Source: Planctomycetota bacterium
GTDB taxonomy: Bacteria > Planctomycetota > UBA11346
Direction: 5' to 3'
Assembly (NCBI GenBank): GCA_031426335.1
Contig: JANPLC010000241.1
Coordinates: 1,828 to 65,827, forward strand
Length of the DNA: 64,000 bases
Part shown: positions 2,450 through 43,738 of the stretch, piece after piece
How the letters are laid out: each line of letters begins with the position of its first letter
Position numbering within the stretch: the stretch's first letter is position 1
Notes under the pieces: generated by a model
The model's input: only the letters and a program-made list of their open reading frames with translations
Databases searched by the model: none
Told to the model about the DNA's origin: nothing
Translations under genes and position numbers: made by a program

Positions 2450-2463
2450 TCGAGAACACTCGT

Positions 2464-6234: not shown

Positions 6235-6242
6235 GAGCACTC

Positions 6243-6602: not shown

Positions 6603-6673
6603 ACCAACACCGCAGGGCCACGGACGGCACCTGCCTTTCATCCGCGGCCGCGTGCGGCCGCCGGAAGGATTTC

Positions 6674-9155: not shown

Positions 9156-9209
9156 GGACGAACTCCGGTCGGGGTGGAAGCGGGCACAGAATACCAGTGG
9201 ATCAGGGCG

Positions 9210-11278: not shown

Positions 11279-11629
11279 CGGAGCTTATTCACCCGACAGG
11301 TCCATTCATCTCACAGTTTTATGGGAACCTTCCCGCGCGGTTTCCGCTCCTGTTCAATTTTTTCATCCGCCTGAGTGACGTCACGGGGATAGACGTACTG
11401 GAGTCCACAGGCGCGGTCGGCAGACGGTGCCGCCGGAGCAGGTGGGCGGTCAGCCGCAGCTGACGCCGCAGCAGCGGTTGGTGGTGTCGAACACATGGAT
11501 GAAGAGTGGTCTGCCAGGGCGAGCGCTGGTGGCCTCAGCCGTGCGGTAGGCCAACGAGCAGCCGGCTGGCGGAGGGCTGGCGGAGGTGACCAAGCGTGCG
11601 GTGCTGATGACCTGCGGAGACTGGTCCGT

Positions 11630-11753: not shown

Positions 11754-11769
11754 AAAGTTACCCCGCCTG
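11754..11769. repeat. Left copy of a 16-bp direct repeat AAAGTTACCCCGCCTG (candidate att core)
   Basis: Identical 16-mer at 35369-35384. This copy forms the acceptor 3' strand and part of the T-stem of the tRNA-like sequence. Confidence 0.65.
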
Positions 11770-11812
11770 GATTCGAACCAGGAATGAGAGAGCCAAAATC
11801 TCAGTCCGGGGT
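11757..11812 (-). other. tRNA-like sequence lacking a D-arm (Gln-UUG-like anticodon arm, T-arm, 7-bp acceptor helix); not a canonical tRNA gene
   Basis: Minus-strand read: TACCCCG-GAC-TGAGA-TTTTGGC-TCTCT-CATT-CCTGG-TTCGAAT-CCAGG-CGGGGTA-A. It has a perfect T-arm with a GGTTCGAATCC box and a perfect 7-bp acceptor pairing, but only 3 nt where the D-arm should be. Confidence 0.5.
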
Positions 11813-11891
11813 ATTCTAGGGAAGTCGAGCTGTGCGTTTTACTGTGTTTTTACGTATTTCCAATTTCTAGGAATTGCTGGGAAGTCACCCC

Positions 11892-11970: not shown

Positions 11971-13308
11971 ATGGCACCTCACGACGGTATCTCGATCCAG
12001 GATCGCTGGCTGGACGCTCCGGCCACGAAGGCGGCGGGCAAAGAGCGACTGAAGCCGGTCAATAATCGCTGCGCCAAAGTCAGCCGCTATTTCGTGCGCG
12101 TGTGGGATCCCAATCTTCCAGCCAAGAACCCGGGTGGGAAAATTGGTGGCTACGCTTCAAAGTGCTTCCCGACCGTGACAGCGGGTCATGCCTGGGCTGA
12201 GCATCGTCGCGGCGAATTTCTCAAAGGCACGGCATCGGCACACACGACGACCATGACCGAACTGGGCACCGCTTTCATGACGAGCCTGCGCACGCGTATC
12301 GACGGGGCGGTCACGGAGCGACATCAAGCGCAGGTCCAGCAGGTGATTGATGGTTTGGTGTCGGCTGGAGCGCGCGACATCACCGATCCGTCGTTTCCGG
12401 ACCTCGTGCAACGCTGGCTGTCGGGCCTCCAAGCCCAACGTACTTGGGAAAAGCGCCCACGCCCGGCGTCGCCAGGATTGAAACGGAAGTTCTTGGTCAT
12501 CGCTCGTGCCGTCATGGCGTACGCCCAAGAGCGGCGATTGGTGGCCTATGATCCCCTCGCCGCGATCAGAACCGGTCGGGTCGAGCAGAAGCGCAAAGCC
12601 ATCTTTGCCATCAATGAACTTTCCGCCCTGGTCAGCGATTCAGCCCGCTGGAAGAATCGTGATAAGTGGTCAGAGGCGCGGCGCATGGTCGATGCCCACC
12701 ACGGCAATCAGAAGGAAGCCGCCAAGGCCCTGGGGATATCACCCTCAACCTTGCACTACCGCCTGAATACCCCGCAGGAAGCCGATCCCTGGTGGCTCGT
12801 CGCTGTCTTGCTGACCTACACCGGGTGCCGGATCTCCGAAGTGCTGGCGATGACACCGCGCATGGTGGATCGCCAGGCTGGAGTCCTGCTGCTGCCGGCC
12901 AGCGCAACCGGCAACAAGATGAAGCGCGACCGGCGCATCCGCTTGCAACCGGAATTGATGGCGATTCTGGCAGAAGTGCTTGATGCGGGTGCGCTCGGAA
13001 AGGACGAGCCACTGGTGGGAACCCACATGGTGAAATTCACCAGCGCGAACCTCGGCAACGGATTCAAAGACTATTGCCGCCGCTGCGGCATCGAACCTGG
13101 GCCGCGCGGTCCGCATGCGCTTCGCCACACCTTCTGCGCGCTGATGACCGCACTGGGCGTCTCACCTTTCCTGGTCATGGAATTGGCGGGGCATACGTCG
13201 GCTCAAGTTACCAGATCCTACAGCCAGTCAGCCGAAGAACTCATCGACGGTGTGGCCTGCTGGCCCAGACATGAGCCAGCACAGTTCTATCTTCGTCGAG
13301 CAAAATGA
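11971..13308 (+). CDS. int: Tyrosine recombinase / phage-type integrase
   Basis: 445 aa. Catalytic signature 'TGCRISEVLAM' (Arg), 'HALRHTFCALM' (His-x-x-Arg-His), 'LAGHTSAQVTRSY' (His...Tyr). Adjacent to the att repeat. Confidence 0.9.
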   Translation: MAPHDGISIQDRWLDAPATKAAGKERLKPVNNRCAKVSRYFVRVWDPNLPAKNPGGKIGGYASKCFPTVTAGHAWAEHRRGEFLKGTASAHTTTMTELGTAFMTSLRTRIDGAVTERHQAQVQQVIDGLVSAGARDITDPSFPDLVQRWLSGLQAQRTWEKRPRPASPGLKRKFLVIARAVMAYAQERRLVAYDPLAAIRTGRVEQKRKAIFAINELSALVSDSARWKNRDKWSEARRMVDAHHGNQKEAAKALGISPSTLHYRLNTPQEADPWWLVAVLLTYTGCRISEVLAMTPRMVDRQAGVLLLPASATGNKMKRDRRIRLQPELMAILAEVLDAGALGKDEPLVGTHMVKFTSANLGNGFKDYCRRCGIEPGPRGPHALRHTFCALMTALGVSPFLVMELAGHTSAQVTRSYSQSAEELIDGVACWPRHEPAQFYLRRAK

Positions 13309-13949: not shown

Positions 13950-14480
13950 TCAAGCTTCCCATGGCAGAGGATAACCAAACGAAGCGATCTTCGGATCCTC
14001 ACGAAGAACATAGTCTTTATCCCCCGGCCATAGTGAATCATCATAATTCAAAGATCTCTCTAGTGCATTCTTAATAAATATGAACAGAGTCGAAGCCGCA
14101 ATATAGCATACGTTCGTTCGTCCTAGTATTCCTTCAACAAAGACGATTGGGGGATCCAATGGATTATCCCCCAATACAGCGACATAGTGATTTCCATGAC
14201 TATCACCAGCAATCGGCAAGAACGAAGCTGATCTGTATTCCGGAATCATACTTGCTATTTTTACGATCTCTTTGGCCCCCAAAAAATCACAGCCAATCAC
14301 TTCCGCTCCATCGACTTTCGTAAGCCATGACTGCAGATCAGCAGGGAACTCCATGCCGATTTCAATCGACGCTTCCTTAATTTCAATTGTCGATGCGCCG
14401 CGATATGCTATCGACCCACCAGAATACGTTCGGGATTTGGCTAGAATCTGGAGAAGAGTGTTTAAATTTGGCTTATTCAT
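13950..14480 (-). CDS. SMI1/KNR4 (SUKH-1)-type immunity protein
   Basis: 176 aa, starting 12 nt after the toxin stop with AGGA 4 nt upstream. 'IEIKEASIEIGMEFPADLQSWLTKVDGAEV' and 'FLPIAGDSHGNHYVAVLG...PPIVFVEG' fit the SUKH pattern (lP.dy..fl...nG ... ia.dg.Gn.y). Confidence 0.75.
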   Translation of the reverse strand: MNKPNLNTLLQILAKSRTYSGGSIAYRGASTIEIKEASIEIGMEFPADLQSWLTKVDGAEVIGCDFLGAKEIVKIASMIPEYRSASFLPIAGDSHGNHYVAVLGDNPLDPPIVFVEGILGRTNVCYIAASTLFIFIKNALERSLNYDDSLWPGDKDYVLREDPKIASFGYPLPWEA

Positions 14481-28887: not shown

Positions 28888-30090
28888 TCACCACATTACG
28901 ACAACCAGACCTGGACGCCCTGGCCCGTCGGGGTTCCCCCCAGAACCATATCCCGCACCTGGTGATCCAAACATGTAGCCTGCACCAGCAGTTCCCGGGG
29001 CATAACCATAAAAGTTCCCATTGAGCGATACCGGCTGGCTATTCGTCCCTTTAGCCCCTTGGATTGCTAGGCCAGTTGCACCATTGAGTACCGCAGCCCC
29101 CCCATTGAGATATGTCGCCCCACTACAAATAATGAGGGATCCAAAGCTTGTTTGACTACCAGCTAAACCACCAATCCCCCCTCCAGTACCAACTGTGATC
29201 GCATAGCTTCCTTGAGGGCTAGAAACGACAGCCCAAGCAAATCCACCGGCATTTCCTGGTTCAGCAAGTGTGGCATAACTTCCATCCTGGTTAGAACTCG
29301 TCTGACTGGGAACCCCGCCAGAACCACCCCCCAAAGCAATCACTTGAATTTGTGTGACACCAGCAGGAACGGTAAAGGTACCGCTGGAGGTAAAGAATTG
29401 GACGCCCTTCGAAGAAACCATCAGGGGCAATTGTGATGCCAAGACTTTCCCACTCGCATCGAGCGTGGCCAAGCCGTTCGCAGCCCCTTTCTCATCGCCC
29501 CGCACCGCCTGCGCGCCAGTTGCTGGCGCAGTGCGATTGATCACCACGTCGCCTGCTGTAACCGTTCCAGCAACATTTATCGGCGTGCTAAAGCTAGTGT
29601 TTGTCTTGGTCACGCGGACAGCACGAACGACGCCATCTGGGTATAGATCAATGCCGCCATTGGTCTGGCGGTTGACGATTTCAATCGGGACGTCCGAACT
29701 CGGACGCATATTCAGCTGGCTGGCACCTGCCCAGATAAAGCCCCCGCCAATGACAACTTGTCCTGCCGTTACCGTAGTGGGCGGGGATTTGGTGACGACT
29801 AATTGGCGCCCACCCACTTCGTCGTAGACCGAAAAGGTTTTCCCAGCTTGACGCCACTGGATAAACGGACCTAGAGCATCTGCTGCCCAGGTTCCCTGCA
29901 TCAGTCCGTTCAGGTAGGAATCAAATGCAAGACCAGTAGCAACCCGTCCGCCTCCAATGCGAACCTGCGTCGACGTCGGTGCGACCGGAACTGCACCGGC
30001 CACAATGACCGCACCAGCGGGATCAACAGTCAGCACATCCTCTGCCTGGAGTGCTCCGATGGCCAAGAGGCTAATTAAGATTCGTTTCAT
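28888..30090 (-). CDS. Secreted phage-tail-fibre-like protein with C-terminal glycine-rich domain
   Basis: Start at the internal ATG 30090 ('MKRILISLLAIGALQA' signal peptide). 'NGLATLDASGKVLASQLP' is a tail-fibre hallmark. 'FFTSSGTFTVPAGVTQIQVIALGGGSGG...ITVGTGGG' is the glycine-rich domain seen in phage fibres. Confidence 0.7.
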   Translation of the reverse strand: MKRILISLLAIGALQAEDVLTVDPAGAVIVAGAVPVAPTSTQVRIGGGRVATGLAFDSYLNGLMQGTWAADALGPFIQWRQAGKTFSVYDEVGGRQLVVTKSPPTTVTAGQVVIGGGFIWAGASQLNMRPSSDVPIEIVNRQTNGGIDLYPDGVVRAVRVTKTNTSFSTPINVAGTVTAGDVVINRTAPATGAQAVRGDEKGAANGLATLDASGKVLASQLPLMVSSKGVQFFTSSGTFTVPAGVTQIQVIALGGGSGGVPSQTSSNQDGSYATLAEPGNAGGFAWAVVSSPQGSYAITVGTGGGIGGLAGSQTSFGSLIICSGATYLNGGAAVLNGATGLAIQGAKGTNSQPVSLNGNFYGYAPGTAGAGYMFGSPGAGYGSGGNPDGPGRPGLVVVMW

Positions 30091-30148
30091 GGTTATCCCT
30101 GAAAATGATGTGTATCGCTCTGACACTTAGAAAAAATGAGTTAATGAT

Positions 30149-31150
30149 TCAAAACCCCATAACTGCCACGGTGACTATCGAGGCATTGGTCGCTGCCAGA
30201 GGACCATTGATGCAAACAAAGGAAACGCTCGTTGTCGTCAATGCTCCGACTTGATTGAAATAGGCCGTCATCGCTTCTGGCCCACACGTAATAATTGGGA
30301 CATAGGAAACCGAAGCGAACGGCGTTGTGAAGTTTACTCGGTACTGACCAGTGGCGAGGCGATCCACCGAGGACACATTATAAGCACCACGAACCGTAAG
30401 TGCCGCGGCCTTCCCATCAAAATTAACCCACGCCTTTATGCTGCCCGCGTTGATACGTGGGTCATCACCCCGAACAACTTCGGTCGCAGCCGCTGGGGTA
30501 GCACGACTAATCACGGCGTTATTCGAAGAAACCGTACCTGCAAATAAATCTCCCCCAGTTCTAATCACGCCACCGCCAATTGCGGTCTCGTCCACCTTCA
30601 CCTGTGCTGCTTGTGGCTGGGGGCCGTAAAACGTGGTGTAGCCGTCCGGGGTAATCTCCATCCGCGTGATCGCATTCGCCGTCGGTGCGGGCGAGGTCGT
30701 TGGCGTTGTGGAGAATTTCAATCCGGCTCGTTGACCCGCGCCGCCTGGCAACCATCCGCTGATTATGTAGAGATTGGGGTCTGCCTCACTGTAGCGTCCA
30801 CCACGAAGGCCACCGCTGTTCAAATCGCCAATGGAGAGGAGGCCTGACGTCATCACGCCTCCTCCTCCTATTGCGGTCCCTGTGGTCCCAGTGGGCAGCG
30901 TCGTGGTAGGCATCGGTCCGTAAAAAATGGATGGGGTTGAATCCCCGGCGATTCCAACCAGGAGGCGCTGAGCAAAGGCGGCTCCGCCGCCAGAAATCCG
31001 CGATTCCGTTGATGTATTGACGCCACCAAGCGTTCCGCCCGCTGTTACTAGGCTACCGGCTACCTGGACGGTGCCACTTGGGTCAACCGTCAAGGCATCG
31101 GCAGAATGGAGAGCGCCTATTGCCAGCAGGCTTAAAATAATTTTTTTCAT
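30149..31150 (-). CDS. Secreted phage-tail-fibre-like protein (paralogous N-terminus to 28888-30090)
   Basis: Signal peptide 'MKKIILSLLAIGALHS'. Shares 'LTVDPSGTVQVAG' with its neighbour. C-terminus 'VVRGDDPRI...IKAWVNFDG...LTVRGAYNVSSVDRLATGQYRVNFTTPFASVSY' matches a common tail-fibre C-terminal module. Confidence 0.7.
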   Translation of the reverse strand: MKKIILSLLAIGALHSADALTVDPSGTVQVAGSLVTAGGTLGGVNTSTESRISGGGAAFAQRLLVGIAGDSTPSIFYGPMPTTTLPTGTTGTAIGGGGVMTSGLLSIGDLNSGGLRGGRYSEADPNLYIISGWLPGGAGQRAGLKFSTTPTTSPAPTANAITRMEITPDGYTTFYGPQPQAAQVKVDETAIGGGVIRTGGDLFAGTVSSNNAVISRATPAAATEVVRGDDPRINAGSIKAWVNFDGKAAALTVRGAYNVSSVDRLATGQYRVNFTTPFASVSYVPIITCGPEAMTAYFNQVGALTTTSVSFVCINGPLAATNASIVTVAVMGF

Positions 31151-31210
31151 GCGGTTTTCTTGAAAAGAGGCCGGCGCTCTGCGCCTAACCGGCTACTTCG
31201 CCTCGTTGAT

Positions 31211-31939
31211 TTAAAATCCATTGGCCGCTCCATCGGAAATCGGCACCGGCGCTTCGGTGGGTGGCTGCGAAGGAACCGCTTCCGACTGTGGTGCGCCGGG
31301 ACGCTGGTTGTCCACAGGCGGCTGGAACCCCGGCAGAGAATAGGCGCCCATGCGGCGCTGACGCGCTTCCTCAATCGCCTTTCGGGCTTCCATGAAGAAT
31401 CGCGATGATGTCGGGCGGCCGGACTGCGATTCGTCCAACACCGCCCAGCCGGCACGCATCAATTCGACCTGCAGCGATGTCCGATGGTGGGCACCTGGCC
31501 CCGCAGGTGGTGGTGGCGACGCAGGATCCACCGGTGCGGAAAAATCCCGCAGAATCCAAGCCTTGGCCAAGCCAAAGGCGTCTGTTTCCAATCGTTGACC
31601 GCTCACCTCGATCATCACGTCGCAACCTGGCGGGCAGAGTTCCTTCAATTTAGTCAGCGCGTGCTCGGGTGGGCCGATCAGGCGGATGCCCTCCAATTGC
31701 AGCGGAATGGTCGTGGGCAGACCGCCTACTGTGGCTTCAACCGTGATGCGCAAGGCGCTTTGCACGTCGACCACCCGCACCGGCATTGATTCCATGGCCA
31801 CTGACGGACCGCCGAAGATGAGAGCCGACGCCAACCCCATCGACATATACTTGACCACTCGACTGACGTCGACCGAGAACATGCCCACCCCGCCTTGTTT
31901 GGCGGGGCGGCGTTCTAGAAACGGCCAGCACCTAGTCAA
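31211..31939 (-). CDS. Exported SNase (thermonuclease)-like OB-fold protein, catalytic motif degenerate; Pro-rich C-terminus
   Basis: 'VRVVDVQSALRITVE...IPLQLEGIRLIGPPE...DAFGLAKAWIL...SLQVELMRAGWAVLDE' follows the SNase pattern (V.DGDT..V....vRL.GIDaPE ... eLvr.GlA). The DGDT and GIDxPE acidic residues are replaced. Confidence 0.45.
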   Translation of the reverse strand: MTRCWPFLERRPAKQGGVGMFSVDVSRVVKYMSMGLASALIFGGPSVAMESMPVRVVDVQSALRITVEATVGGLPTTIPLQLEGIRLIGPPEHALTKLKELCPPGCDVMIEVSGQRLETDAFGLAKAWILRDFSAPVDPASPPPPAGPGAHHRTSLQVELMRAGWAVLDESQSGRPTSSRFFMEARKAIEEARQRRMGAYSLPGFQPPVDNQRPGAPQSEAVPSQPPTEAPVPISDGAANGF

Positions 31940-32387: not shown

Positions 32388-32586
32388 GGAACACGCGGAA
32401 CACTAGGAACACGGTGACGGGCTTCAGAGACTCACACCTACCAGTCGGATGTCAGCGCTCTGGTCTGCGCCCGCGTGACCTCTGATCGATGCTCGCTAGG
32501 CACTTACTCGACCGTTCACTAAACACTGACGATAAGCACACAAACACCGGCTGGTCCCTCATTGTTCTCAGTGTTCCTGGTGTTCC
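32388..32586. promoter_or_regulatory. Iteron-like repeats (candidate replication origin/operator of the island)
   Basis: GGAACAC x3 at 9-bp period (32388-32394, 32397-32403, 32406-32412). Inverted GTGTTCC x2 at the same period (32571-32577, 32580-32586), plus a degenerate copy at 32562-32568. The ~150-bp spacer contains AAACAC variants. Lies immediately 3' of the primase gene. Confidence 0.4.
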
Positions 32587-33914
32587 GGGTGGTTGGTAGT
32601 CAGGGACGATTGGGGAAGAAGTGCTGCGCGGAAATACTCCGGCACGTCGTAGATCCACTCCAAGCGATCTGCCAAGCGCACCCGGCGACGATTGAAGGCG
32701 AGGGCCGTTAGTCGCTGGCCGAGGCGAGCCATCTCCAACGGACGCGCGCCGTTTGCTTGGCACCAGTACAGGAAGCGCAGGCGGGTGTGGCGGCAGAGTT
32801 CGCCGCAGGTGGCGTCGTAGGCGGGAATGTCCTCAGGATCGGTGCCAGGCGGCGACCAGCAGAGGCGCTGCCAGCGTTCGTCCTCCAGCCAACCGGTGAC
32901 GGCGTCGCGGGCGATCAGGGCGAGTTGGCGCTGGCGCAGTTCTGGTAATACGGCGTGGATCGGCGGGGCGTCGTGTTCGTTCACGGCGCGCCACAGCAAA
33001 TCGATATTGATGGCATTGATGGCGGACCAATCCACCGCGCCGCTGGGATTCACGTCCAATTGATGGAAACGACGCGCACCGGTAGTGTCATTGACCAGGA
33101 GCGACACCGGTTCGTTGGCCGTGCCGGCGAAGGTCATCAAGCGCCGTGCTGTGATGCGGCCGTTCTCGCGCATGCGGCGGTAGCTGACGGCCGGTTGGGT
33201 GATGACGCGCTTGATGTCGGCGGCCTCGGTGGTGCTGACGCGGGCCATTTCATCAAGGATGCCAATGGCGTGCGTGGCCATGACCTGCGCTTCGCGTTCA
33301 TCGCTGAACGTGCGCGCGCTAACGTCGATCACCAGTTCGCCGAGTGGTTCGACCAACCGGCGCAGCGCCGTGCTTTTGCCGGTGCCCTGGACGTGGCCGT
33401 AGATCACCAGCATCAGTTCATCGTGAGTTGGCAGACCAGCGAGACGGCGTTTCACCTGCCAGAGCCAATGACATACCACGGTGGTATCCACTGAATCGGT
33501 GCGGCCGGTGATGGCGGCACACCAGGCGGCGACTTCGTCGGCCCCGCGTTGATCCACCGGCTGATCAAGCAGACGGCCGGTGATGGCAGCGTAGCGTTCG
33601 CGTGCGTCCTGACGCGCGAGTTCCTCGAAGATCGCTTGGAGCGTGGCTTCGCTGGCGCGCACGCCCTGGGAACGCAAGGCGAACCACAGTGAACGCGCCA
33701 ATGCCCCATGGGCTGCGTCGGCACCGGCGATGTCGCCGAGCGCGCCATCAGCCGCCAAGCGATACGTCCCGGTGGCGTCGACCGCCAAGCCGCGCGAGTG
33801 ACGATGACGGCGGCATGCTTCGACCATTTTAGCGAAGGTGAAACCGTCGGTCAGCGGCGGCGCGGACTTTGCTGGTGATGATGTCGGCGTTGGATCAGTG
33901 AGGAGGCGAGGCAT
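32568..33914 (-). CDS. VapE / P4-type primase-helicase family NTPase
   Basis: Start at the internal ATG 33914 ('MPRLLTDPTP'). Walker A 'GHVQGTGKSTALRRL', Walker B-like 'AIGILDEM', and 'LMTFAGTANE...TGARRFHQLDV', typical of virulence-associated protein E / D5-like helicases. Confidence 0.8.
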   Translation of the reverse strand: MPRLLTDPTPTSSPAKSAPPLTDGFTFAKMVEACRRHRHSRGLAVDATGTYRLAADGALGDIAGADAAHGALARSLWFALRSQGVRASEATLQAIFEELARQDARERYAAITGRLLDQPVDQRGADEVAAWCAAITGRTDSVDTTVVCHWLWQVKRRLAGLPTHDELMLVIYGHVQGTGKSTALRRLVEPLGELVIDVSARTFSDEREAQVMATHAIGILDEMARVSTTEAADIKRVITQPAVSYRRMRENGRITARRLMTFAGTANEPVSLLVNDTTGARRFHQLDVNPSGAVDWSAINAINIDLLWRAVNEHDAPPIHAVLPELRQRQLALIARDAVTGWLEDERWQRLCWSPPGTDPEDIPAYDATCGELCRHTRLRFLYWCQANGARPLEMARLGQRLTALAFNRRRVRLADRLEWIYDVPEYFRAALLPQSSLTTNHPEHQEH

Positions 33915-33918
33915 GGGT

Positions 33919-34185
33919 TCACCGCAGGTGGGGATGAGGAAAAAGTTCTTCAACCAAGGCGCCGTGCACAGGATGGCGGCGACGAACCACGGCTGGCCAA
34001 GGTTCGCCATCGCAATCCACCAGCACGCGTTCGCCGGGCAGCAGGGTCGCGCCGGTGGCGAACTCCGCTAACCGCTGAACGTTGCCAGCGGTCAGCACGG
34101 TCACGCGTTCATCACTGGCGATGACCGCCACGCGAGGAGCGGGCTCGCCAGGAAAGCGCAGTGATGATGCTGGGGAATGGGGCAT
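33919..34185 (-). CDS. Hypothetical protein
   Basis: 88-aa ORF in the operon between the HTH genes and the primase. It ends 4 nt before the primase start. No motifs recognised. Confidence 0.45.
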   Translation of the reverse strand: MPHSPASSLRFPGEPAPRVAVIASDERVTVLTAGNVQRLAEFATGATLLPGERVLVDCDGEPWPAVVRRRHPVHGALVEELFPHPHLR

Positions 34186-35368: not shown

Positions 35369-35384
35369 AAAGTTACCCCGCCTG
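35369..35384. repeat. Right copy of the 16-bp direct repeat AAAGTTACCCCGCCTG (candidate att core, junction between island and prophage)
   Basis: Identical to 11754-11769. On its right, 43 bp separate it from the stop of the prophage distal tail gene. Confidence 0.65.
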
Positions 35385-35427
35385 CATGGTGTACGAACCT
35401 TGACGGTCCGGCTTCCACGGCGGCCGG

Positions 35428-38124
35428 TCACGCTCCCGCGGCGTAGATTCGCGGGTCATAGGGCTGGCACGTCAACTCTACCTCGGTCTCGCTCCGGGGC
35501 ATGACCTTGGTGACCACCACGTCCTGGCACCATGTGGTCCCCGGTCCGAACAGGTAGGCGGTGCGGTCGCCGTTGGACAGGTCTAGCCGTGGGGTGAAGT
35601 CCAGCGCGCCCACCAGGGTGAAGGCGTTGGGGTTGTCGGCCACCTCGGTGACCGCCCACGGGCCGGAGAGGCTGCCGTCCGGCTTGCGGAGCCCGACGTA
35701 GTGCGCGCTGGAGGGCGTCCAGGTCAATGGCTCGCTGGTGGTGTAGGTGGTGCCGCTGATGGCCAGGAGCGCCCCGGATTGGCCCCAGGCGGGCACGTCG
35801 TGGCTGATGGCGATGAGGTCGCCCACCAGTGGGATATGGCCGTCCATTTCGGTAGTGAACCGGATAACCTTGCGCTGATAGGCATCGACGCGCGCCAGGT
35901 ACGTGGCCTCGCGCTGCGCCTGTGCTTGGTTGGTCACGCCGAACAGGTCGACCGATGCCGGCCGCAGCGGGGCGCCGCCGCCCACCGTCGCCTCAATGTG
36001 TGCTTGCCGCCAGGTGTTGGGGTCGATCCATGCCAGCTCGATGCCGTCCGGGTCGTCGGCCTGTCGGAATGTGTACTCAATTCCCAGGCTGCCCTTTTTC
36101 ATGTGCTGCGGGGAATAGAGCGCCGTGCGGATGGTGCGCGCTTGGTCGCGTACGAACGTCACCACGCCACCGCTAACGATGGGCGTTGCACGGCCAGCGC
36201 GGGCAATGCGCGTGAGCGTTTCCCATACCGTAATGGTCTGGTCAAAGACGCCGTCGAAAAAGTCGCCGCGGGCGGCCCAAATGCCGTCCAGCTCCAACAG
36301 CTTGGCCAAGTCGATCCGGCTCTCCGGTAGGTCGGCGCCGTAGTCGCCATTGCGCAACACGTCAGCGAGTGCCCATGCTGGTGAGCGCGTGGCCTGTGGC
36401 GCGCTCCAGGTGGCGCCGTTCCACACTGGCAGCTTGCGCGTGGCGATGATGTTGATTTGCCGCGCAACGTCCTGCGGGATTTGTTCGGTGGCCTTCACGC
36501 GCAGGGCGTACAGCGTTACGTCCGCGTAGGTGCCGACGCTCGGCAGATACCCGCGCATGCCTGCCCAGGTGGTTTCGTCGGGAATGTTGGCATTGAACGG
36601 TGACGCGGTGGTGCGACGGACGCGAACCTCCCAGCGATTGGCGGACGTTGGCGGATTGTAGCGGAAGGACACGCGCACCGCTGACAGGTTGTTGCGGGTG
36701 ATCGACTCCGTTCCCAGCGTGGTCCACGTGCCGGGGCCGGTCGGGTCGCCGTTGTTGTCGATCGGCCGCGCCTGGAACTCAACGCCCACGGTGTACTCCG
36801 CGCCGTTGTTGGTCAGTCCCTTGGCAAAAAGAATATCCAGGCCGATCGCCTGCAAGTCGGTGTTGGCCGCGTTCACCGGAAACGGGCCGACGTAGCCACC
36901 ACTGGCCAGGATGATGTACGGGTTGGCGAGCGTTTCGCCCACGATCGTTTCCAGCACGGTGGCGCTGGCGCCGCTGGGGTCGACGGTGTCGAGCGTGAGC
37001 GTTGCGTTGTTGCTCGCCGTGTTGCTGATGGTGATGGAGTCGCCGGGCTTGAGTCGGATAAATCGCTTGAGCGTCGGGTCTGAAATGGTCTTCGTTCCGG
37101 CGGTGAACGTGACGTTGCCGGCAATGATCAATGTAATATTGGGACCCGCCGCAACGGGGTCGCGCACCACGCTGGCAGCATTCGGAGATTCGTCAGTGAA
37201 CACGGACCCGCTTGCCGCCACCCACAGGCCACCGGCGTCCATGGTGGTGATCACGTGCGTTCCGGCGTTGGCGCAGTTGGCCAGTATGATGGAGTCACCC
37301 ACGAGGCAGTCGATAAAAAGCGCCGGGTTGTCGAGCGCGGTTATTCGCTTGGTCGCGGCGGTGATCTGCACGCGACCATTGCCCGGAAGGTTCGCGTCGT
37401 TGGTCGCGCGGAGTAGCTGACCCTGGACGAGGCTGGAGGTGCTGACGTTGTCTTCAAACAGCGTCAGCGTATCGCCGGGCGCCACGATCTGTGACGTAAA
37501 GTTGGACAGCCTGGTGACGACAGATTCAGCAATGCGGACCTCTTCAATGTCGAACTCTCCATTTCCGAGACAAAGCACCATAAAAAGGTATTGGTCGTTG
37601 CTGTCGTACTCGGTGTAGGGGTTGGCGATGAGGTCCGGCACGATGCGGTGGGTTCCATAGAGGGCCGGGATGGGCTCACCGATGCGGCGACGGTTGACCA
37701 CGTCGAGCGCGTAGGTTGGCGAACCGCTTTCAAATTGCAGCGCACTTGGGACGCGTGGCGTCTGGATCAGCAGCGATGAGGCGAGGCCGACCACGCCGCC
37801 AGCGATGAGCGCGACGCCGACGCCGGCCAGCGGGGTGAACAGCAGTACCGCGCCAATGGCTATCATGCCGATGGACACCCACATGCCGGCGTTTTTTCCA
37901 CCGGCCACTAGGCGCACGGCAACCACCGCGGCGCCGGATTCTATTGGGCGCTCCCACTCCGCTTGCAGCACCCACACGCCATTTATTGAAACCACGGCCG
38001 GGCGGCCGTCCGCCATGTCCGCAGAGCGCAGGCAATCGCGCACCGTGCGACCGGACGGCAACTCTGACAGCTCGCGGCGGTGCGGTTGGAACGGGTCGGC
38101 GCAGGCAAGCAGCTTTATGGTCAT
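35428..38124 (-). CDS. Tail tip / host-specificity protein (lambda gpI-like N-terminus fused to a gpJ-like body)
   Basis: Start at the internal ATG 38124 ('MTIKLLACADPF...') coupled to the upstream stop. The N-terminal ~120 aa with TM-like 'WVSIGMIAIGAVLLFTPLAGVGVALIAGGVVGLA' resemble tail assembly protein I. The remainder is a large J-like protein in terminal position. Confidence 0.7.
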   Translation of the reverse strand: MTIKLLACADPFQPHRRELSELPSGRTVRDCLRSADMADGRPAVVSINGVWVLQAEWERPIESGAAVVAVRLVAGGKNAGMWVSIGMIAIGAVLLFTPLAGVGVALIAGGVVGLASSLLIQTPRVPSALQFESGSPTYALDVVNRRRIGEPIPALYGTHRIVPDLIANPYTEYDSNDQYLFMVLCLGNGEFDIEEVRIAESVVTRLSNFTSQIVAPGDTLTLFEDNVSTSSLVQGQLLRATNDANLPGNGRVQITAATKRITALDNPALFIDCLVGDSIILANCANAGTHVITTMDAGGLWVAASGSVFTDESPNAASVVRDPVAAGPNITLIIAGNVTFTAGTKTISDPTLKRFIRLKPGDSITISNTASNNATLTLDTVDPSGASATVLETIVGETLANPYIILASGGYVGPFPVNAANTDLQAIGLDILFAKGLTNNGAEYTVGVEFQARPIDNNGDPTGPGTWTTLGTESITRNNLSAVRVSFRYNPPTSANRWEVRVRRTTASPFNANIPDETTWAGMRGYLPSVGTYADVTLYALRVKATEQIPQDVARQINIIATRKLPVWNGATWSAPQATRSPAWALADVLRNGDYGADLPESRIDLAKLLELDGIWAARGDFFDGVFDQTITVWETLTRIARAGRATPIVSGGVVTFVRDQARTIRTALYSPQHMKKGSLGIEYTFRQADDPDGIELAWIDPNTWRQAHIEATVGGGAPLRPASVDLFGVTNQAQAQREATYLARVDAYQRKVIRFTTEMDGHIPLVGDLIAISHDVPAWGQSGALLAISGTTYTTSEPLTWTPSSAHYVGLRKPDGSLSGPWAVTEVADNPNAFTLVGALDFTPRLDLSNGDRTAYLFGPGTTWCQDVVVTKVMPRSETEVELTCQPYDPRIYAAGA

Positions 38125-38522
38125 GCGCGGTCCCGGTGGCGGTAGAACTTGAACGATCCCCAGCCGACCACCGCAAGCGCGCGGATCGGCGCGACCGTCA
38201 CGCCGAGCGGTTCGGCGCAGTGTGCAACCAGTCCACCGTCCGTTGCCAGCCAAACGCCCACGTGGTGCGGCCGTGCGCGTCGCCCCATCGCCACCGCGTC
38301 ACCATCGCGCGGGATCGACACCGGGCACCACCGACCGCTGCCGGCCTCGGTGTAGGCAAAGGGAACGTCCCGTGCGGTGTCGCCTGCCACGTGGCCCAGC
38401 TCGTGCAGCTCGATTCCGTAGGCTTGGCGATAGACCAGGCGGAGGAACTCCCAGCAATCGAATGCTGGCGGCTCCCACGGTCGACCGACCAACGGCGCAA
38501 CGATGGCGGCGAGGTCAGACAC
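38121..38522 (-). CDS. NlpC/P60-family tail protein (lambda gpK-like)
   Basis: 'FDCWEFLRLVYRQ' (catalytic Cys) and 'PHHVGVWL' (His). Probable GTG start at 38522 overlaps the upstream stop. The ORF track's start at 38600 would overlap the upstream gene by 86 nt. Confidence 0.65.
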   Translation of the reverse strand: MSDLAAIVAPLVGRPWEPPAFDCWEFLRLVYRQAYGIELHELGHVAGDTARDVPFAYTEAGSGRWCPVSIPRDGDAVAMGRRARPHHVGVWLATDGGLVAHCAEPLGVTVAPIRALAVVGWGSFKFYRHRDRA

Positions 38523-39039
38523 GGGGCGCGAGCCCTGGGAACTCCTCAACCGTGTAGATGCGGCGAGGGAAACGACGGTTGAGGAAATCCGCGTGGGCAC
38601 ACATGCACGTCACCTGCATGGCGTCGGCTGAAATGCGCGTCACGTCGAGCGTCAGCGGCGGCGTCATTTGCGGCGCGGTGGTGTCGGTCGACAGGTACGG
38701 GCGATATGTTGCCTTTATCGGCGTTTCGCTGGCGAGGTCTGCGGCCTCCAGGAGCGGCATCAAAAGCTGTGCCACGTTGTCGATCTGGATTTGCAACTCC
38801 TGCCGGCCCTCGCCTACCTGTGGCAGCGTGAAGCGAAACGGGCAGGCGGTGAATAGCACGGCGTCGCCAGCGTCCACCGGCGCTTCGTCCTCCAGTGTGG
38901 CGGTCAGGTCTGCGAAGTCCGCAACCAGACGGATGGGGTCCGCCCACGTCGGATGCCATAGCTCCATGGTGTGGAGAATGACAACCGTGGGCGGCGCGCT
39001 GGCGTATGCCTCGGCAAGGGCCTCGGTGAGCGTTGCCAT
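38515..39039 (-). CDS. DUF1833-like minor tail protein
   Basis: Start ATG 39039 (TAATG overlap with upstream). 'VVILHTMELWHP..ADPIRLVAD...FTACPFRFTLPQVGEGRQELQIQIDNV' fits the DUF1833 pattern. Confidence 0.55.
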   Translation of the reverse strand: MATLTEALAEAYASAPPTVVILHTMELWHPTWADPIRLVADFADLTATLEDEAPVDAGDAVLFTACPFRFTLPQVGEGRQELQIQIDNVAQLLMPLLEAADLASETPIKATYRPYLSTDTTAPQMTPPLTLDVTRISADAMQVTCMCAHADFLNRRFPRRIYTVEEFPGLAPRV

Positions 39040-41087
39040 TAGTTTGGCACGTCGACGCCGGTTTGGGAAATCTGCACCCACGCCGAGCCAGTAAACTTGA
39101 AGCTAACGGAGCGATTCTGGCCATTCGCTGGGTTGGTCCATGCCGACTTGTAATAGGCTCCATCCCACGTGATGGCGCCTAATGCACCGCCGCTGCCATT
39201 CTTGATCGTCAGTGTGATAATCTGCCCAAGATTGCCCTTGGTTGGCGCGTTTATCGTGAACGCGGTTCCGTTGGTCGCCGTGATCTCAAACACGGTTCCG
39301 CTTGTCGCGTCCGGTGTCATCGACGCGGAATAGGTGATGGCGTTATTGCCATATCCGATCGTAGCGCCGGCATCCTTGGCAATCGCAGCGCCGGTCGTGT
39401 TTTTAATGATGTTACCCTGTTGATACAGGGTTGAGGTGTCCAATGCGTTGATGCCGTTCGTGGTGCTGTCACGAATGATGCAGTCTTTGACAAATGCCTC
39501 CGAGGCATTCTGTGTGATCACGCCATAGCTTCCGCCGCTGAGGTAAGACGACGCAACAACGTGCGCGGTTCCGTTCTGGAACTGAATGCATGCGTCCGTT
39601 GTTCCAGAAATGTGCGCGTCTTTCACCTGGACGCCTGCGCCGCGGTTGACAAGGATTCCTTGGGTAACGCCGCCACGGATGCGTATGTCTGAAAGAATTA
39701 GGCTCCTAACTTCACCGAATGCAGCAGTCCCGGAAACAAGAATTGCAGGACCAGGACCGCCGTACGTTGGAGTTTCTGCCGAGATAGTCACATCGGAGAC
39801 GATTGTATCCAAAAGGTTGCCGGCGTATGCGCCTGGGATGCCCACCTGGATAGCACCAACTGACCCAAGCCAGCCGAGCACGGAAAGCCCATTAATCACG
39901 TTGCCGTGCCTGTCGCTTCCGTTGGCATTGGTGATCGCCGCGCCTGCCCCGCAGTAGCGAGCGGTACAGCCAGAAATGATTCCATTATTGGACGACTCCA
40001 ACACGAAACCGGTGTCCGTGCAGTTCGTCGCAATGCAGCCTATTATTACGTTCTGCTCGCCGCTCGTAAATATGGCGTCGGCATCTTTCGACGGAGAAAG
40101 CCCCGCCTCTCCGCAGTCAATGATAACACACCCCTCAAGGCGGCAGCGGGTTGATTGACCGGCGGCGAAAAGTGCAACGGCGGAGCCGCCGTTGTATCCC
40201 AGGGCATTCTGTGCGCGCACGTTGATGAGGTGGCATTCGGTGCATGCGCTAAAGCCTGCGCACATATAACGGATGGACTGGCTAGCTTTTCGGTTGTCCT
40301 TGTTGGCGTCAAAGTTGATGTCCCGAGCGACAACTCCGGCCCTTCCGGTTGCTAGCAACATATATTCAAACTGCGTTGATGCCTTGGCCTTGATGAGGGC
40401 GGGACCTCTGATTGTCACGTTGTCCGTGCCGGGGGTTAGTTGACTACCAATGATATAGGTTCCGGCCTGGAACCGCAGAGTCCCATAGGCCGGCGTTGCA
40501 TCAATGGCGGCCTGGATTGCGGTGGTGTCGTCCGTTGTTCCGTCTCCCTTGGCACCGAACCACCGAACGTCTAGCTCGCCGTCGTAGACACGAAGCCAGC
40601 GGCCGGTTGCTGGCGCGGCGGTCGGGATGATGACCGTCCCGCCGTTATCGGTCACGCTCGATGCACTGTCCCAGCGGAAAATGCCGCCGCCGAGGTCGCC
40701 GGCCGCGTAGTAGCCAAGCACCAGAATTGTCCCGTAGGTATTGGCTGCGGCCTTGAGGAGGGCCATGGTGTCCACCACTGACGTGGCGGTGTAATGAACT
40801 ATCCACTTTCCTGCGGCAAGATCGTTAGCGAAGGCCGCCGCGGAGGTGTGCGCGGTGACACAACGGTAAGCGGTCCCGCTCGACGTTACCACCTCGCCCA
40901 GCGCGTACGCGGTTAGCGTCACCCAGGCGCCGCGCACAGTTCCGGCGCCCATGCTGGTGAGGAGTCGCGCAAGACTTGGAACCTGGCCGCCGTCCGTCGC
41001 CACCGTGGTGGCCGCGTCGCCGTTTACGATCTGTTGCAGCTTCGGGCGATCCAAGGCAATGCGGGCGATGTCGGTTGCAAGGCTCAT
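39039..41087 (-). CDS. Tailspike/fibre with pectate-lyase-3-type right-handed beta-helix (putative polysaccharide depolymerase)
   Basis: 'LDVRWFGAKGDGTTDDTTAIQAAIDA...GTLRFQAGTYII' is the Pectate_lyase_3 hallmark. It is followed by repetitive beta-helix-like 'N.I.G....' segments. Confidence 0.7.
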   Translation of the reverse strand: MSLATDIARIALDRPKLQQIVNGDAATTVATDGGQVPSLARLLTSMGAGTVRGAWVTLTAYALGEVVTSSGTAYRCVTAHTSAAAFANDLAAGKWIVHYTATSVVDTMALLKAAANTYGTILVLGYYAAGDLGGGIFRWDSASSVTDNGGTVIIPTAAPATGRWLRVYDGELDVRWFGAKGDGTTDDTTAIQAAIDATPAYGTLRFQAGTYIIGSQLTPGTDNVTIRGPALIKAKASTQFEYMLLATGRAGVVARDINFDANKDNRKASQSIRYMCAGFSACTECHLINVRAQNALGYNGGSAVALFAAGQSTRCRLEGCVIIDCGEAGLSPSKDADAIFTSGEQNVIIGCIATNCTDTGFVLESSNNGIISGCTARYCGAGAAITNANGSDRHGNVINGLSVLGWLGSVGAIQVGIPGAYAGNLLDTIVSDVTISAETPTYGGPGPAILVSGTAAFGEVRSLILSDIRIRGGVTQGILVNRGAGVQVKDAHISGTTDACIQFQNGTAHVVASSYLSGGSYGVITQNASEAFVKDCIIRDSTTNGINALDTSTLYQQGNIIKNTTGAAIAKDAGATIGYGNNAITYSASMTPDATSGTVFEITATNGTAFTINAPTKGNLGQIITLTIKNGSGGALGAITWDGAYYKSAWTNPANGQNRSVSFKFTGSAWVQISQTGVDVPN

Positions 41088-41090: not shown

Positions 41091-41588
41091 TCAGGGTCCT
41101 AGCGGTGCGATAGAGTCAGCGGGATATTGCACGTGGCAAAAGCTGTAGAGAGACAGCGCATCGTTGGCGTATTCAAACACGCCTTCCGCCAAGAGTCCCT
41201 CAAGGTCTCCGGCTGAGAGCTGCGGCATCTGGTCGACCTCGACCTCCCAGGACACGCGCCACACGTCCGGGCTGATCATCTGCGACTTGAACGGAGCGAC
41301 GCCGCGCACCGTCCACACGTCATCGGAAATGCCGTTGCGCAAAATGATGTTGCACCACGCGGAGCCGTCGCCCAGCGTGCCGCGCCAGAACCCGTCAAAG
41401 AGGCCGTATTGCAGGCGGGTGAAATTGAAGTTGAGAGACGCCGTGGTCATCTGCCGTGTGAAGCGACGACGCACGCGCGCCGTGGCGTTGTCCATGTCGG
41501 TGCGAATGGTCGACGGCATCGGCTGTAAGCCGTAGCCATCAGCGAGCGGACGCGGCAGGTACTTGATTGGCCACGCTGCAACGGTCAT
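41091..41588 (-). CDS. Minor (distal) tail protein, hypothetical
   Basis: 165 aa, directly after the tape measure gene with an ATGA overlap. Assigned by position only. Confidence 0.45.
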   Translation of the reverse strand: MTVAAWPIKYLPRPLADGYGLQPMPSTIRTDMDNATARVRRRFTRQMTTASLNFNFTRLQYGLFDGFWRGTLGDGSAWCNIILRNGISDDVWTVRGVAPFKSQMISPDVWRVSWEVEVDQMPQLSAGDLEGLLAEGVFEYANDALSLYSFCHVQYPADSIAPLGP

Positions 41589-43738
41589 CGGCTTGACCCC
41601 CGCGAACGGTTGAGGCCGTACGTGGTTTGCATGGTCTTGCTGACCGGCCCCACGCCGCTGGCGATGTCGCCGGCCATGCGGTTGGACACCTGCTCAATAA
41701 TGAGGTCTATGCGTGGGGCGCCGCCCTCGCCGGTGCTTTCCTCGCTGCGCGCGGCCATGCCGGGCGGCGTGTGGACGTGGACCTCCACGGTGGGCTTGCC
41801 GCCTGCGGGTCCGCCTGGGGTGACTTGGCCGCCCTTGTTGCCCATCATAAGGAACGACTTGTCCCCGACCGTGAGCATTTCGGGGCCGCGCTCGTTCACT
41901 TGGTACATGCCGCCGCGCGAGACCGGACCACCGTTCGCGCGGCCTGGCGGTTCCTGGCCGGCGATCTGCGCCACCGCGGCCATGCCCGAGGCCAACGCCA
42001 TGCCGGCGAATACCTGCGCCATCATCGGGTTGCTGATCAGTGCCGGGCTGGCCAGTGTGTTGGAGTATGCCATCCACGCGTTGACCGTGGCTTGTGCCAT
42101 CGCCGCGCCGCGGTTGAGATAAAAAAGTCCCTTGCTGCTTTCGGCTCCCTCCGCGGTGAGCGTGTCCATGTTGCCGAAAAAGTCAGAGGTGGCGCCGAGT
42201 AGCGCCATCTGCTTCTTGCGCTCGGCCTCGATCTCCTCGGAGTTGGTGGCGTTGCGTGCGGCCACCGTCTCCGCCACGCGTTTCTTTTCTTTGGCCTTGG
42301 CGCGCTCCTCGGCCTGGGACTTGATGGTGATGATTGCCGCCTCGACCTTGCCCAGGTTGGCAAGGCGCTCCTGGTCAATCTGGTTGAGGTCGTAGACCTC
42401 GGCGCGCATGTTGTCGGTGAGATTCTGACGCCATCCGGCAATGGTGGCGTTGGCCTCTGGCAGCGTGGTGAAGGCCTTGCCCAATCGACCCAACGCGGCG
42501 CCGGCATCGTCGGCAGCGTTGCCCATCATGATGCCCGTCACCACGAGGTCCTGCGCGGCTTCCTTGCGCATTTCTTTCGTGGTGTCGCTCAGCGACTTGG
42601 CCGCGCTGGACAGGCTGGCGCTCAGGCTCTCCGACACGTAGCCGGCGGCGTCCGCCAGCTTGGTGATCATCACCGACGCGGCCTGTCCGAGGTTGTCCAG
42701 CACCACCAGGAGGCCCAGCTTCATATTCTGCCACACGTGCTTGATGGCCGCGGCCACCATTTCACCGCCGAACTTGACGGTATCCCACGCTGCATTCCAT
42801 ACGTTGGCGATCATCTGCCCGGTTTGGGTGATGTTCGATGCGGCGGCCAGAACCTTGTCCGTCATCCACATGACGCCGATACGCAGCGCGGACCACACCT
42901 CACGCAGGCGCATCCACACGTCATAGACGCCGACGCCGCCGCGGATGCCGGCCTCCACGAGTGCCGCGATCTGCGAGCGGAAGCCGTTGGACTCGCGCGC
43001 CGTGTTGAGGAACTCGTGGCCCAGCTCGGTGATGTAGGGCGACAGCTCCGACGTAACGCGCAGGCCAAGCGATTGGACGACGGACTCCACCTGCGCGAGG
43101 ACGGTCTTGGCCTCGGTGATCTGGCCAATCTCCGCGCCGGTGAGCGCGATGCCTAACGCCTTCGCGTCCTCTGCCGCCTGCTTCAAGCCGGCGGATCCGT
43201 TGTTGAGCATGGGCAGCATTTCCATGCCGCCCTTGCCGAACAACTTCACCGCGGTGGCGGCTTTTAGGCTGGCGTCGCCGGTCGCCTCAAAGCGGTCCGC
43301 GATGATCGCCAATTGCTCGTCGGTGCCCTTGCCCTTGAGGTCGTCCAGGCTGAGGCCGATGCCACGGAGCGCGCTCTCGACTTCCGGCGAGCCGTTGCGC
43401 AGTGCCACCATGGCCTGCTGCATCTTGCCCATGCTGGTGGCGAACTTCTCGCCCGTCATGCCGGTTTGCACCGCGGCCAAGCGCATGCTCGCCATGGCTT
43501 CGGCCGTCACGCCCATTTGCTCCGCCTGGTCCTCCAGCGCGTCCGCAATATCCATGTTGGTTTTGATGAACGACGCCGCGGCCTTCACCGTGGCGACAGA
43601 CGCCCACACGCCGACCAATCCCAGGACGGTATTCTTGAACGCGGCCACCTGCTTGGAGGCCTCGCCAAACGCCTTCGTCATCTTCTCGTGCGATGCACTG
43701 AGGACGACTTGGACGGTACCGATCGTGGTGTTAGCCAT
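41585..43738 (-). CDS. Tail tape measure protein
   Basis: 717 aa, Ala/Gly/Met-rich and helical, with 'GLVGVWASVATVKAAA' hydrophobic segments. Lies immediately downstream of the G/GT chaperone pair. Confidence 0.8.
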   Translation of the reverse strand: MANTTIGTVQVVLSASHEKMTKAFGEASKQVAAFKNTVLGLVGVWASVATVKAAASFIKTNMDIADALEDQAEQMGVTAEAMASMRLAAVQTGMTGEKFATSMGKMQQAMVALRNGSPEVESALRGIGLSLDDLKGKGTDEQLAIIADRFEATGDASLKAATAVKLFGKGGMEMLPMLNNGSAGLKQAAEDAKALGIALTGAEIGQITEAKTVLAQVESVVQSLGLRVTSELSPYITELGHEFLNTARESNGFRSQIAALVEAGIRGGVGVYDVWMRLREVWSALRIGVMWMTDKVLAAASNITQTGQMIANVWNAAWDTVKFGGEMVAAAIKHVWQNMKLGLLVVLDNLGQAASVMITKLADAAGYVSESLSASLSSAAKSLSDTTKEMRKEAAQDLVVTGIMMGNAADDAGAALGRLGKAFTTLPEANATIAGWRQNLTDNMRAEVYDLNQIDQERLANLGKVEAAIITIKSQAEERAKAKEKKRVAETVAARNATNSEEIEAERKKQMALLGATSDFFGNMDTLTAEGAESSKGLFYLNRGAAMAQATVNAWMAYSNTLASPALISNPMMAQVFAGMALASGMAAVAQIAGQEPPGRANGGPVSRGGMYQVNERGPEMLTVGDKSFLMMGNKGGQVTPGGPAGGKPTVEVHVHTPPGMAARSEESTGEGGAPRIDLIIEQVSNRMAGDIASGVGPVSKTMQTTYGLNRSRGSSR

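Follow-up and report, generated by a model that had tools for sequence, protein, structure and literature searches.

Phage-derived fibres pick the targets of bacterial weapons such as tailocins and extracellular contractile injection systems (eCIS). To our knowledge, it is largely unknown how targets are chosen by giant Sec-dependent polymorphic toxins that have no partner from a type V, VI or VII secretion system (T5SS, T6SS or T7SS). In the polymorphic toxins described by Zhang et al. (2012; PMC3482391), tail-fibre repeats are an occasional central filament module, present in cis within the toxin. In Streptomyces, the large polymorphic toxins of the secreted umbrella (Umb) particles are reported to scaffold separate, diversified carbohydrate-binding (lectin) subunits that set target specificity (Zhao et al. 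2024, PMC11062931; PMC13274773). Here, we analyzed a 64,000-nucleotide (nt) stretch of DNA (the window) from Planctomycetota bacterium (GenBank assembly GCA_031426335.1, contig JANPLC010000241.1), in which two genes for fibre-like proteins, denoted A and B, lie directly upstream of the gene for a giant polymorphic toxin. The locus appears to be a polymorphic toxin system whose targeting is delegated to exported, swappable receptor-binding proteins of phage derivation. Both proteins are members of a family not described before, with predicted Sec export and built from phage tail-fibre parts.

Architecture of the two fibre-like proteins

A and B are arranged head to tail on the minus strand with 58 nt between them, and the end of A is followed after 82 nt by the ATG of the toxin gene (28805). 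BLASTP comparison revealed that homology between A and B is confined to two segments, residues 1-58 (49% identity, E value 9e-13) and a junction of ~27 residues with the pattern V(I)(N/S)R..PA.....VRGD(E/D) (E value 4e-5); in the middle and towards the C-terminus the two are unrelated. A preliminary description of the window had called the two proteins paralogues, a term that fits the N-terminal ~55 residues and the junction, but not the remainder. All strings it quoted are present; A contains LTVDPAGAVIVAG, NGLATLDASGKVLASQLP, FTSSGTFTVPAGVT and GGGSGG, and B contains LTVDPSGTVQVAG and KAWVNFDGKAAALTVRGAYNVSSVDRLATGQYRVNFTTPF.

Both proteins begin with a predicted Sec signal peptide, called by a heuristic (K or R at positions 2-3, a hydrophobic core, and small residues at -3 and -1). 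The hydrophobic core of the A and B leaders spans 11-13 residues, with a mean Kyte-Doolittle value of 2.7 in the best 10-residue window, and is not long enough to act as a membrane anchor. Directly before the conserved motif come small residues at -3/-1 (LQA, HSA/ADA), and no lipobox cysteine was found in the N-termini of A and B. The predicted cleavage points are MKRILISLLAIGALQA before EDV in A and MKKIILSLLAIGALHSA before DA in B, and the N-module that follows has the shared pattern (A/E)D(V/A)LTVDPxGxVxVAG...IGGG. Judging from these features, both signal peptides would be cleaved; the mature proteins may be located at the cell surface.

The B gene begins with an ATG that is the first start codon past an in-frame stop, and the public protein P0010 is identical to B. 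For A, the mechanically called open reading frame (ORF) extends from 28888 to 30126 with a GTG start; we took as its start the ATG at 30090 (MKRILIS...), as in the public protein P0001 and at the equivalent position in ~40 homologues. The reading that a wrong start codon had been chosen was rejected for both genes on these grounds. Furthermore, by the same heuristic the signal-peptide features are kept across ~50 members of the N-module family; since the leaders are retained as protein in ~50 homologue clusters whose DNA has diverged, they are not start-codon artefacts, and the signal peptides claimed in the preliminary description stand, with canonical Sec features.

Word-index searches returned few relatives of A and B, all of the same plan; we then employed an exhaustive search of 1.84 billion representative proteins with a profile of 53 positions covering the signal peptide and the N-module. 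A and B score ~1e-20 and ~1e-17 respectively with this profile, and their N-terminal likeness is far above chance expectation. The search gave 86 proteins at E<=1e-3. In about 50 of them the N-terminus itself matches the profile over its full length, and 42 of this group have an RGDD-type junction as well. Hits with multiple matches to the N-module (P0020-P0023, P0026, P0046, P0056 and P0057) were discarded as beta-propeller or unrelated repeat proteins. The family plan consists of a signal peptide, the N-module (A/E)D(V/A)(L/V)TVDPxGxVxVxG...EV(R/K)IGGG, a variable shaft, the junction NR..A...(E/Q)(A/V)VRGDDPR, and an exchangeable tip. The nearly invariant VRGDDPR of the junction, found in 42 of 50 family members, is a structural or recombinational joint. 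The preliminary description had noted an RGD tripeptide in each protein: VRGDE is indeed present in A and VRGDD in B, but neither is an independent hallmark, as both are part of this junction. RGD as an integrin-type or cell-adhesion signal was rejected on the same basis, the tripeptide being embedded in a family-wide motif.

The tips are of phage origin. In A, residues 234-389 of 400 match the Pfam family Gly_rich_2 (PF21722) with 33.5 bits, against a gathering cut-off of 24.3, and A also matches the tail-fibre families PHROG 863 and 6202. The AlphaFold2 (AF2) model of this glycine-rich domain has a block-mean predicted local distance difference test (pLDDT) of 81-94 over most of residues ~231-320 (59-64 at 261-280). 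Foldseek comparison of the model with BFVD gave 37 matches at E<=1e-3, the best with an E value of 2.9e-11; most are tailed-phage proteins that have a glycine-rich domain or are tail fibres. The same comparison with PDB gave nothing significant, the best match being a Bxb1 tail-tip chain (E value 0.023), and the sequences of A, B and a neighbouring 223-amino acid (aa) protein had no usable match among PDB sequences. In B, the last ~100 residues hit two PHROG families that are both annotated as tail fibre (phrog_11355 and phrog_3484), and tblastn with the tip matched seven phage records at 40-50% identity, at the extreme C-termini of tail proteins. These include orf113 of Nitrincola phage 1M3-16 (654 aa, 'putative tail protein') and orf26 of Pseudomonas phage PPSC2 (783 aa), both of which have the B-type domain at the extreme C-terminus, are set among fibre genes, and start with MPYINRPLD... 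and MADISKIDM... respectively, without a hydrophobic leader. The tail-fibre likeness noted in the preliminary description is thus borne out for the C-terminal halves of both proteins, and orf113 and orf26 agree with the contrast it drew between A and B and virion fibres, which lack signal peptides.

Across the family, the sequence past the junction is hypervariable, with at least ten tip types judged by the C-terminal ends. Pfam recognized Gly_rich_2 in 12 of 45 members, Collar in five, Gp10_C in three, and nothing in the rest. Matches of family members fall into 67 PHROG families; of the 25 listed, the majority carry a tail or tail-fibre annotation. The mosaic character of the proteins is evident in close relatives of B. 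Along the first 82% of B, P0011 shows 78% identity to it and has a different tip. Conversely, P0012, from the locus L003, shares the tip of B (~93% amino-acid and 83% DNA identity) and has a different shaft. When the DNA of the window was compared with L003, the gene for the 223-aa protein (87%), the 5' end of the toxin gene (82%) and the B tip (83%) aligned, and no alignment was obtained in the B shaft or anywhere in A, whose L003 counterpart is Collar-tipped. This alignment pattern indicates that the fibre genes are the mosaic part of an otherwise conserved locus, and domain swapping takes place at the junction.

Two further proteins, P0053 (L016, 8091-9347) and P0079, form a distant subfamily with a similar signal peptide, repeated (V/I)(R/K)IGGG and a C-terminal coiled coil, lacking the TVDP motif. 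P0053 is encoded among housekeeping, pilus-type and flagellar-type genes, with no adjoining giant.

Genomic company of the fibre genes

Usable genomic context was available for ten independent loci (the window, L001, L003, L007, L009, L010, L011, L013, L017 and L020), and their synteny is strict. One to three fibre genes adjoin a giant ORF in every locus; they are divergent in one (L010) and lie upstream on the same strand in nine, where ~46-82 nt separate fibre and giant in the cases with both gene ends defined. The link to the toxin proposed in the preliminary description is therefore supported by co-occurrence with a giant secreted protein in 10 of 10 loci. The fibre genes are probably co-transcribed with the giant toxin gene, or are at least immediately adjacent to it. 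Scans for promoters and terminators between 13.5 and 33 kb gave counts not above those in shuffled sequence; one weak terminator-like hairpin lies at 31173-31185, between the 223-aa gene and B.

Most of the giants are recognizable polymorphic toxins, of either the Calx-beta/PT-HINT/AHH or the DUF6531/RHS type. In the window, B and A precede a Calx-beta/PT-HINT toxin; one fibre gene precedes an orthologous giant in L001, and two fibres precede a 5043-aa Calx-beta/PT-HINT/AHH toxin in L003. The L013-15 locus has two fibres (Gly-rich and Collar) before a Calx-beta giant. A single fibre stands before a 3663-aa MBG/DUF6531/RHS protein in L009, and in L010 a single fibre and a DUF6531/RHS protein of 2536 aa or more are encoded divergently. 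In L007/8, one Collar-tipped fibre precedes a 5583-aa PA14/RCC1/Ig protein, with capsule-synthesis genes upstream, and in L011 the giant that follows the single fibre is truncated and PKD-rich, and genes for an ABC transporter and a chorismate-binding enzyme lie upstream. Three fibres are found before the giant of L017-19, with LytB and ScpA upstream, and two before that of L020. The stalks of the giants are unrelated (Calx-beta/PT-HINT/AHH, MBG/DUF6531/RHS and PA14/RCC1). Among the loci other than the window that keep upstream sequence, no phage genes flank the fibres, and no sheath, tube or baseplate genes stand beside them.

An N-terminal module of the giant is common to the window, L003, L009, L010, L011, L013, L017 and L020, and its sharers include both Calx-type and RHS-type giants. 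The module has no Pfam model and follows the pattern of a signal peptide, A(A/V)D..LP, GPANT, VK(T/A)G(R/Q)L, G(A/G)SF, VPYFP.AP and VQW..GE..Y.W.K. Nine of the ten giants are counted as sharing the module; the L001 giant is an orthologue of the window toxin, with its extreme N-terminus outside the gene call. For giants cut short by the end of a contig, a toxin nature is deduced from the shared N-terminal module. Among the fibre N-modules, identity averages 65% within a locus versus 49% between loci. The predicted mature N-termini of giants and fibres both begin (A/E/V)D(V/A/I).

Searches of 185,579 GTDB species genomes (one per species) with the fibre N-module and with the toxin N-module gave no match, and a scan of JGI metagenomes with the fibre N-module returned only the already known L001 contig. 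The system thus seems to be very rare, which may explain why it was not noticed earlier.

The toxin gene and the surrounding DNA

The toxin begins with the signal peptide MPIRLCLLAVLSLIWPWAKA and is 71-74% identical to the giants of L001 (74%) and L003. Its PT-HINT releasing peptidase occupies residues 4461-4608, and the final ~160 aa, which form the C-terminal toxin domain, have no Pfam match; the L003 orthologue ends in AHH. A SUKH-1 gene lies 12 nt past the toxin stop codon (Table 1), and the locus fits the classical picture of Sec-dependent polymorphic toxins given by Zhang et al. (2012; PMC3482391). The GC content of the toxin gene is 62-67% in the 5' two-thirds (21-28 kb, Calx-beta stalk) and 46-52% in the 3' third (14-20 kb, which encodes the last ~2000 residues with PT-HINT and the toxin domain), and this sharp step inside the gene suggests that the distal third was acquired or exchanged separately. 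At 55%, the GC content of A and B (29-31 kb) lies between these two ranges. The toxin stalk also holds tandem repeats of 327-330 nt. Directly upstream of B, the gene for the conserved 223-aa protein is represented in L017 by a 90-aa relic; the protein had no Pfam or PHROG match.

The whole toxin system appears to be carried on a candidate integrative element of 23.6 kb. A direct repeat of 19 nt, AAAGTTACCCCGCCTG(G/C)AT, has its only two copies at 11754-11772 and 35369-35387, where chance would give 0; they are candidate attachment (att) sites. The left copy is inside a tRNA-like fragment on the minus strand (11758-11813, 26.9 bits, below the Rfam threshold), and the right copy is 40 nt beyond the stop of the J-like gene. 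The repeats bracket the integrase, the immunity gene, the toxin, A, B, the 223-aa gene, a 158-aa ORF, the VapE gene and an excisionase-like small ORF, a gene set from which we conclude that the toxin-fibre block may reside on its own element, in tandem with a prophage. The late region of this lambda-like prophage lies to the right of the toxin locus on the minus strand, from 35428 to at least 64000, and its tape-measure protein and J-type tail mark the phage as non-contractile. An HNH endonuclease and a C5 DNA methylase are encoded further right.

The chromosomal left flank in the window (1-11300) encodes two paralogous secreted proteins at 2464-3975 and 4216-6234, with a 155-nt repeat of 71% identity, together with a FecR-GH5 fusion, a FecR/3-keto-disaccharide-hydrolase fusion and an extracytoplasmic function (ECF) sigma factor. 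Such a set of genes would suit a PVC-type bacterium, although it is not diagnostic of one.

Table 1. Positions of the fibre genes, the toxin system and neighbouring features in the window
Feature	Position	Strand	Basis or remark
Fibre-like protein B, 333 aa	30149..31150	minus	ORF listing; PHROG tail-fibre matches at residues 235-320
B signal peptide (predicted), residues 1 to ~16-19, MKKIILSLLAIGALHSADA	31094..31150	minus	Heuristic: KK at 2-3, hydrophobic core, -3/-1 sites after residues 16 and 19
B N-module, ADALTVDPSGTVQVAG...SRISGGG	30974..31102	minus	Profile match at residues 1-59; 49% identical to the A region
B junction motif, VISRATPAAATEVVRGDDPR, including RGD	30455..30514	minus	R, A, V, R, G and D (nearly) invariant in family alignments
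B C-terminal domain, KAWVNFDG...VAVMGF, phage tail-protein tip	30152..30448	minus	phrog_11355 (1.2e-10), phrog_3484 (1.9e-7); tblastn
Fibre-like protein A, 400 aa	28888..30090	minus	ORF listing, ATG start; identical to public protein P0001
A signal peptide (predicted), residues 1-16, MKRILISLLAIGALQA	30043..30090	minus	Heuristic; homologues start at the equivalent Met
A N-module, EDVLTVDPAGAVIVAG...VRIGGG	29935..30042	minus	Profile match, E value 1.9e-20 in the 1.84-billion-protein library
A junction motif, VINRTAPATGAQAVRGDE	29491..29544	minus	Family alignment; BLASTP of A against B
A C-terminal glycine-rich domain, Gly_rich_2	28891..29391	minus	PF21722; Foldseek against BFVD
Giant polymorphic toxin, 4770 aa	14493..28805	minus	Pfam: two DUF1349, PKD, at least 12 Calx-beta, PT-HINT; signal peptide
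Toxin N-terminal module, ~220-230 aa	28116..28805	minus	36-80% identity to giant N-termini of seven other loci
SUKH-1 (SMI1/KNR4) immunity protein	13950..14480	minus	PF09346 at 1.5e-7
Conserved 223-aa protein, hydrophobic N-terminus, directly upstream of B	31211..31882	minus	Syntenic homologues in L001 and L003
Tyrosine integrase	11971-13308	plus	
VapE-type primase/helicase	32568-34010		
J-like tip protein	35428-38253	minus	
Beta-helix tailspike with CBM5/12	39039-41087	minus	
Tape measure	41585-43738	minus	
Protease	48783-50147	minus	
Portal	52551-54179	minus	
TerL (gpA type)	56167-58311	minus	

Possible roles of the fibre-like proteins

On balance, we favour a role for A and B as exported and exchangeable receptor-binding subunits, derived from phages, that act in trans with giant polymorphic toxins, and consider it somewhat more probable than not. 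The proteins would be exported and assemble into fibres, and the conserved N-module would anchor each fibre on a conserved partner, most likely the conserved ~220 aa at the N-terminus of the giant toxin, or else a shared component of the envelope. The variable tip would then bind a receptor on the surface of the target cell and thereby set the target range of the toxin, after which PT-HINT would free the C-terminal toxin domain, the producer cell being shielded by the SUKH protein. With one to three fibre genes per locus and differing tips, the target range might be widened or hedged. The presence of a conserved toxin module together with a conserved N-module on otherwise hypervariable fibres suggests that the two may form a docking pair. 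A more specific version, in which the loci encode a new kind of multi-subunit secreted toxin particle, in a poorly sampled lineage of bacteria, and the N-module of the giant (Calx-beta or RHS type) carries one to three swappable phage-derived fibres supplied in trans, is possible, and we put it at somewhat less than an even chance. If correct, target range would evolve by tip swaps independently of toxin-domain swaps, and the particle would parallel the umbrella particles of Streptomyces, with domesticated phage parts and in a likely diderm.

Several observations weigh against the favoured reading of A and B as receptor-binding subunits. Export, trimerisation, toxin attachment and receptor binding of A and B are all matters of inference, and the proposal gives no route by which a 4770-aa toxin and its fibres would cross the outer membrane. 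Most genomic contexts are short metagenomic contigs, three of the ten giants are incomplete because the contig stops within them, and the L007 giant shares the toxin N-module weakly. A mirror-tree-style comparison of fibre and toxin N-modules gave a Spearman coefficient of 0.27 (p 0.12, with non-independent pairs), which is not significant, and the AF2 models of the shafts (pLDDT <50) and of B (pLDDT 40) are of low confidence.

Among the alternatives, A and B might be free-standing exported adhesins or fibrils that are not attached to the toxin and serve cell-cell contact or surface adhesion, travelling together with toxins through a common role in contact-dependent competition or through shared carriage by mobile DNA. 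An adhesin would be equally compatible with the signal peptides and with tips of the receptor-binding type, the non-significant co-evolution test is in keeping with it, and so is the distant subfamily P0053/P0079, which has a similar leader and whose L016 copy is not beside a giant. However, adjacency in all ten loci, with short same-strand gaps and next to giants with unrelated stalks, is tighter than co-mobilisation would predict, and a conserved N-module on a hypervariable remainder implies a conserved binding partner; we therefore regard this alternative as unlikely, albeit worth keeping in mind. It is improbable that A and B are export or assembly helpers that fold or stabilise the toxin or move it across the envelope with no part in target recognition. 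The constant position of the fibre genes just upstream of the giant gene and the lack of dedicated secretion genes in the loci are compatible with such helpers, but a chaperone or usher predicts conserved C-termini rather than at least ten tip types as in phage receptor-binding proteins, and the copy number ranges from one to three. Phage-type receptor-binding tips combined with export, in a window locus that adjoins a prophage, could also describe decoys that cover the producer's own receptors against self-intoxication or phage adsorption. Since a dedicated SUKH immunity gene is already there, and the association is with toxins rather than phages (other loci with upstream context have no phage nearby), this role is very improbable.

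We give least credence, and hardly any, to the possibility that A and B are true virion or tailocin fibres of the adjacent prophage with leaders that are merely non-functional hydrophobic N-termini. In its favour, the genes are ~4.3 kb from the J-like tail gene on the same strand, like the lambda side-tail-fibre genes, and their C-terminal domains are homologous to phage fibre tips. Against this, scans of 2.9 million IMG/VR contigs gave no match to the N-module of the fibres or to that of the toxin, so the possibility, raised in the preliminary description, that homologues exist solely as virion components fails. In 50,697 phage genomes, A had no tblastn match and B matched through its C-terminal tip only, the phage homologues of that tip having no signal peptide. 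Moreover, between the fibre genes and the tail genes of the prophage lie the VapE gene, the excisionase-like ORF and the candidate att repeat, and the neighbours are non-phage in the other loci that keep upstream sequence. The preliminary description had also offered, as a less likely role, retargeting of the neighbouring phage; no prophage protein in the window carries the N-module, and the block is apparently on a separate integrase-bearing island. With neither N-module found in IMG/VR, no fibre N-module in the prophage proteins and no match of A in the phage genomes, both the virion-fibre and the phage-retargeting readings are poorly supported.

If the favoured reading of A and B as receptor-binding subunits is true, the targeting of these toxins would be delegated to swappable subunits, a concrete and testable proposal, and the locus would provide a clear case of phage receptor-binding modules domesticated by gain of a signal peptide. 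The principle of a scaffold with separate targeting subunits would then extend beyond Actinobacteria, and the family would constitute a natural toolkit of exchangeable binding tips.

Comparison with known systems

Like phage tail fibres and receptor-binding proteins, A, B and their relatives have a conserved N-terminal part, a shaft and an exchangeable tip, and the tips are homologous (that of A also by fold), as judged by comparison with the phage fibre families Gly_rich_2 (PF21722), Collar (PF07484) and Gp10_C (PF21939) and with PHROGs 863, 6202, 1446, 11355 and 3484. They differ from phage fibres in their predicted Sec signal peptides, in the N-module of the family, and in the location of their genes beside giant toxins rather than in virion modules. 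The fibres of tailocins and eCIS likewise differ from them, being assembled in the cytoplasm without a signal peptide. The CdiA/CdiB system resembles the locus in having a giant filamentous toxin, receptor binding, a C-terminal polymorphic toxin and an adjacent immunity gene. In CdiA, however, the receptor-binding domain is in the same polypeptide, and export relies on a two-partner secretion (TPS) domain and CdiB; Pfam found no TPS or haemagglutinin domain in the window toxin, and no CdiB-like gene is among the annotated neighbours.

The toxins of Zhang et al. (2012) and the window locus have in common a giant Sec-dependent toxin, a repeat stalk, a HINT peptidase, a variable C-terminal toxin and a SUKH gene. 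They differ in that the tail-fibre parts are here separate polypeptides with predicted signal peptides of their own, encoded upstream of the toxin; a tail-fibre accessory acting in trans with its own signal peptide was not found in PMC3482391 or in full-text literature searches. An Umb particle combines UmbC, which has ALF repeats, with UmbB and UmbA (trypsin-like fold with a lectin). The Umb toxins are actinobacterial, whereas the targeting subunits described here are derived from phage fibres, and none of the Umb features looked for by Pfam in the toxin, A and B (ALF repeats, trypsin-like domains and lectin domains) was found. Umb is nevertheless the closest functional analogue of the proposed mechanism, by analogy only and not by homology.

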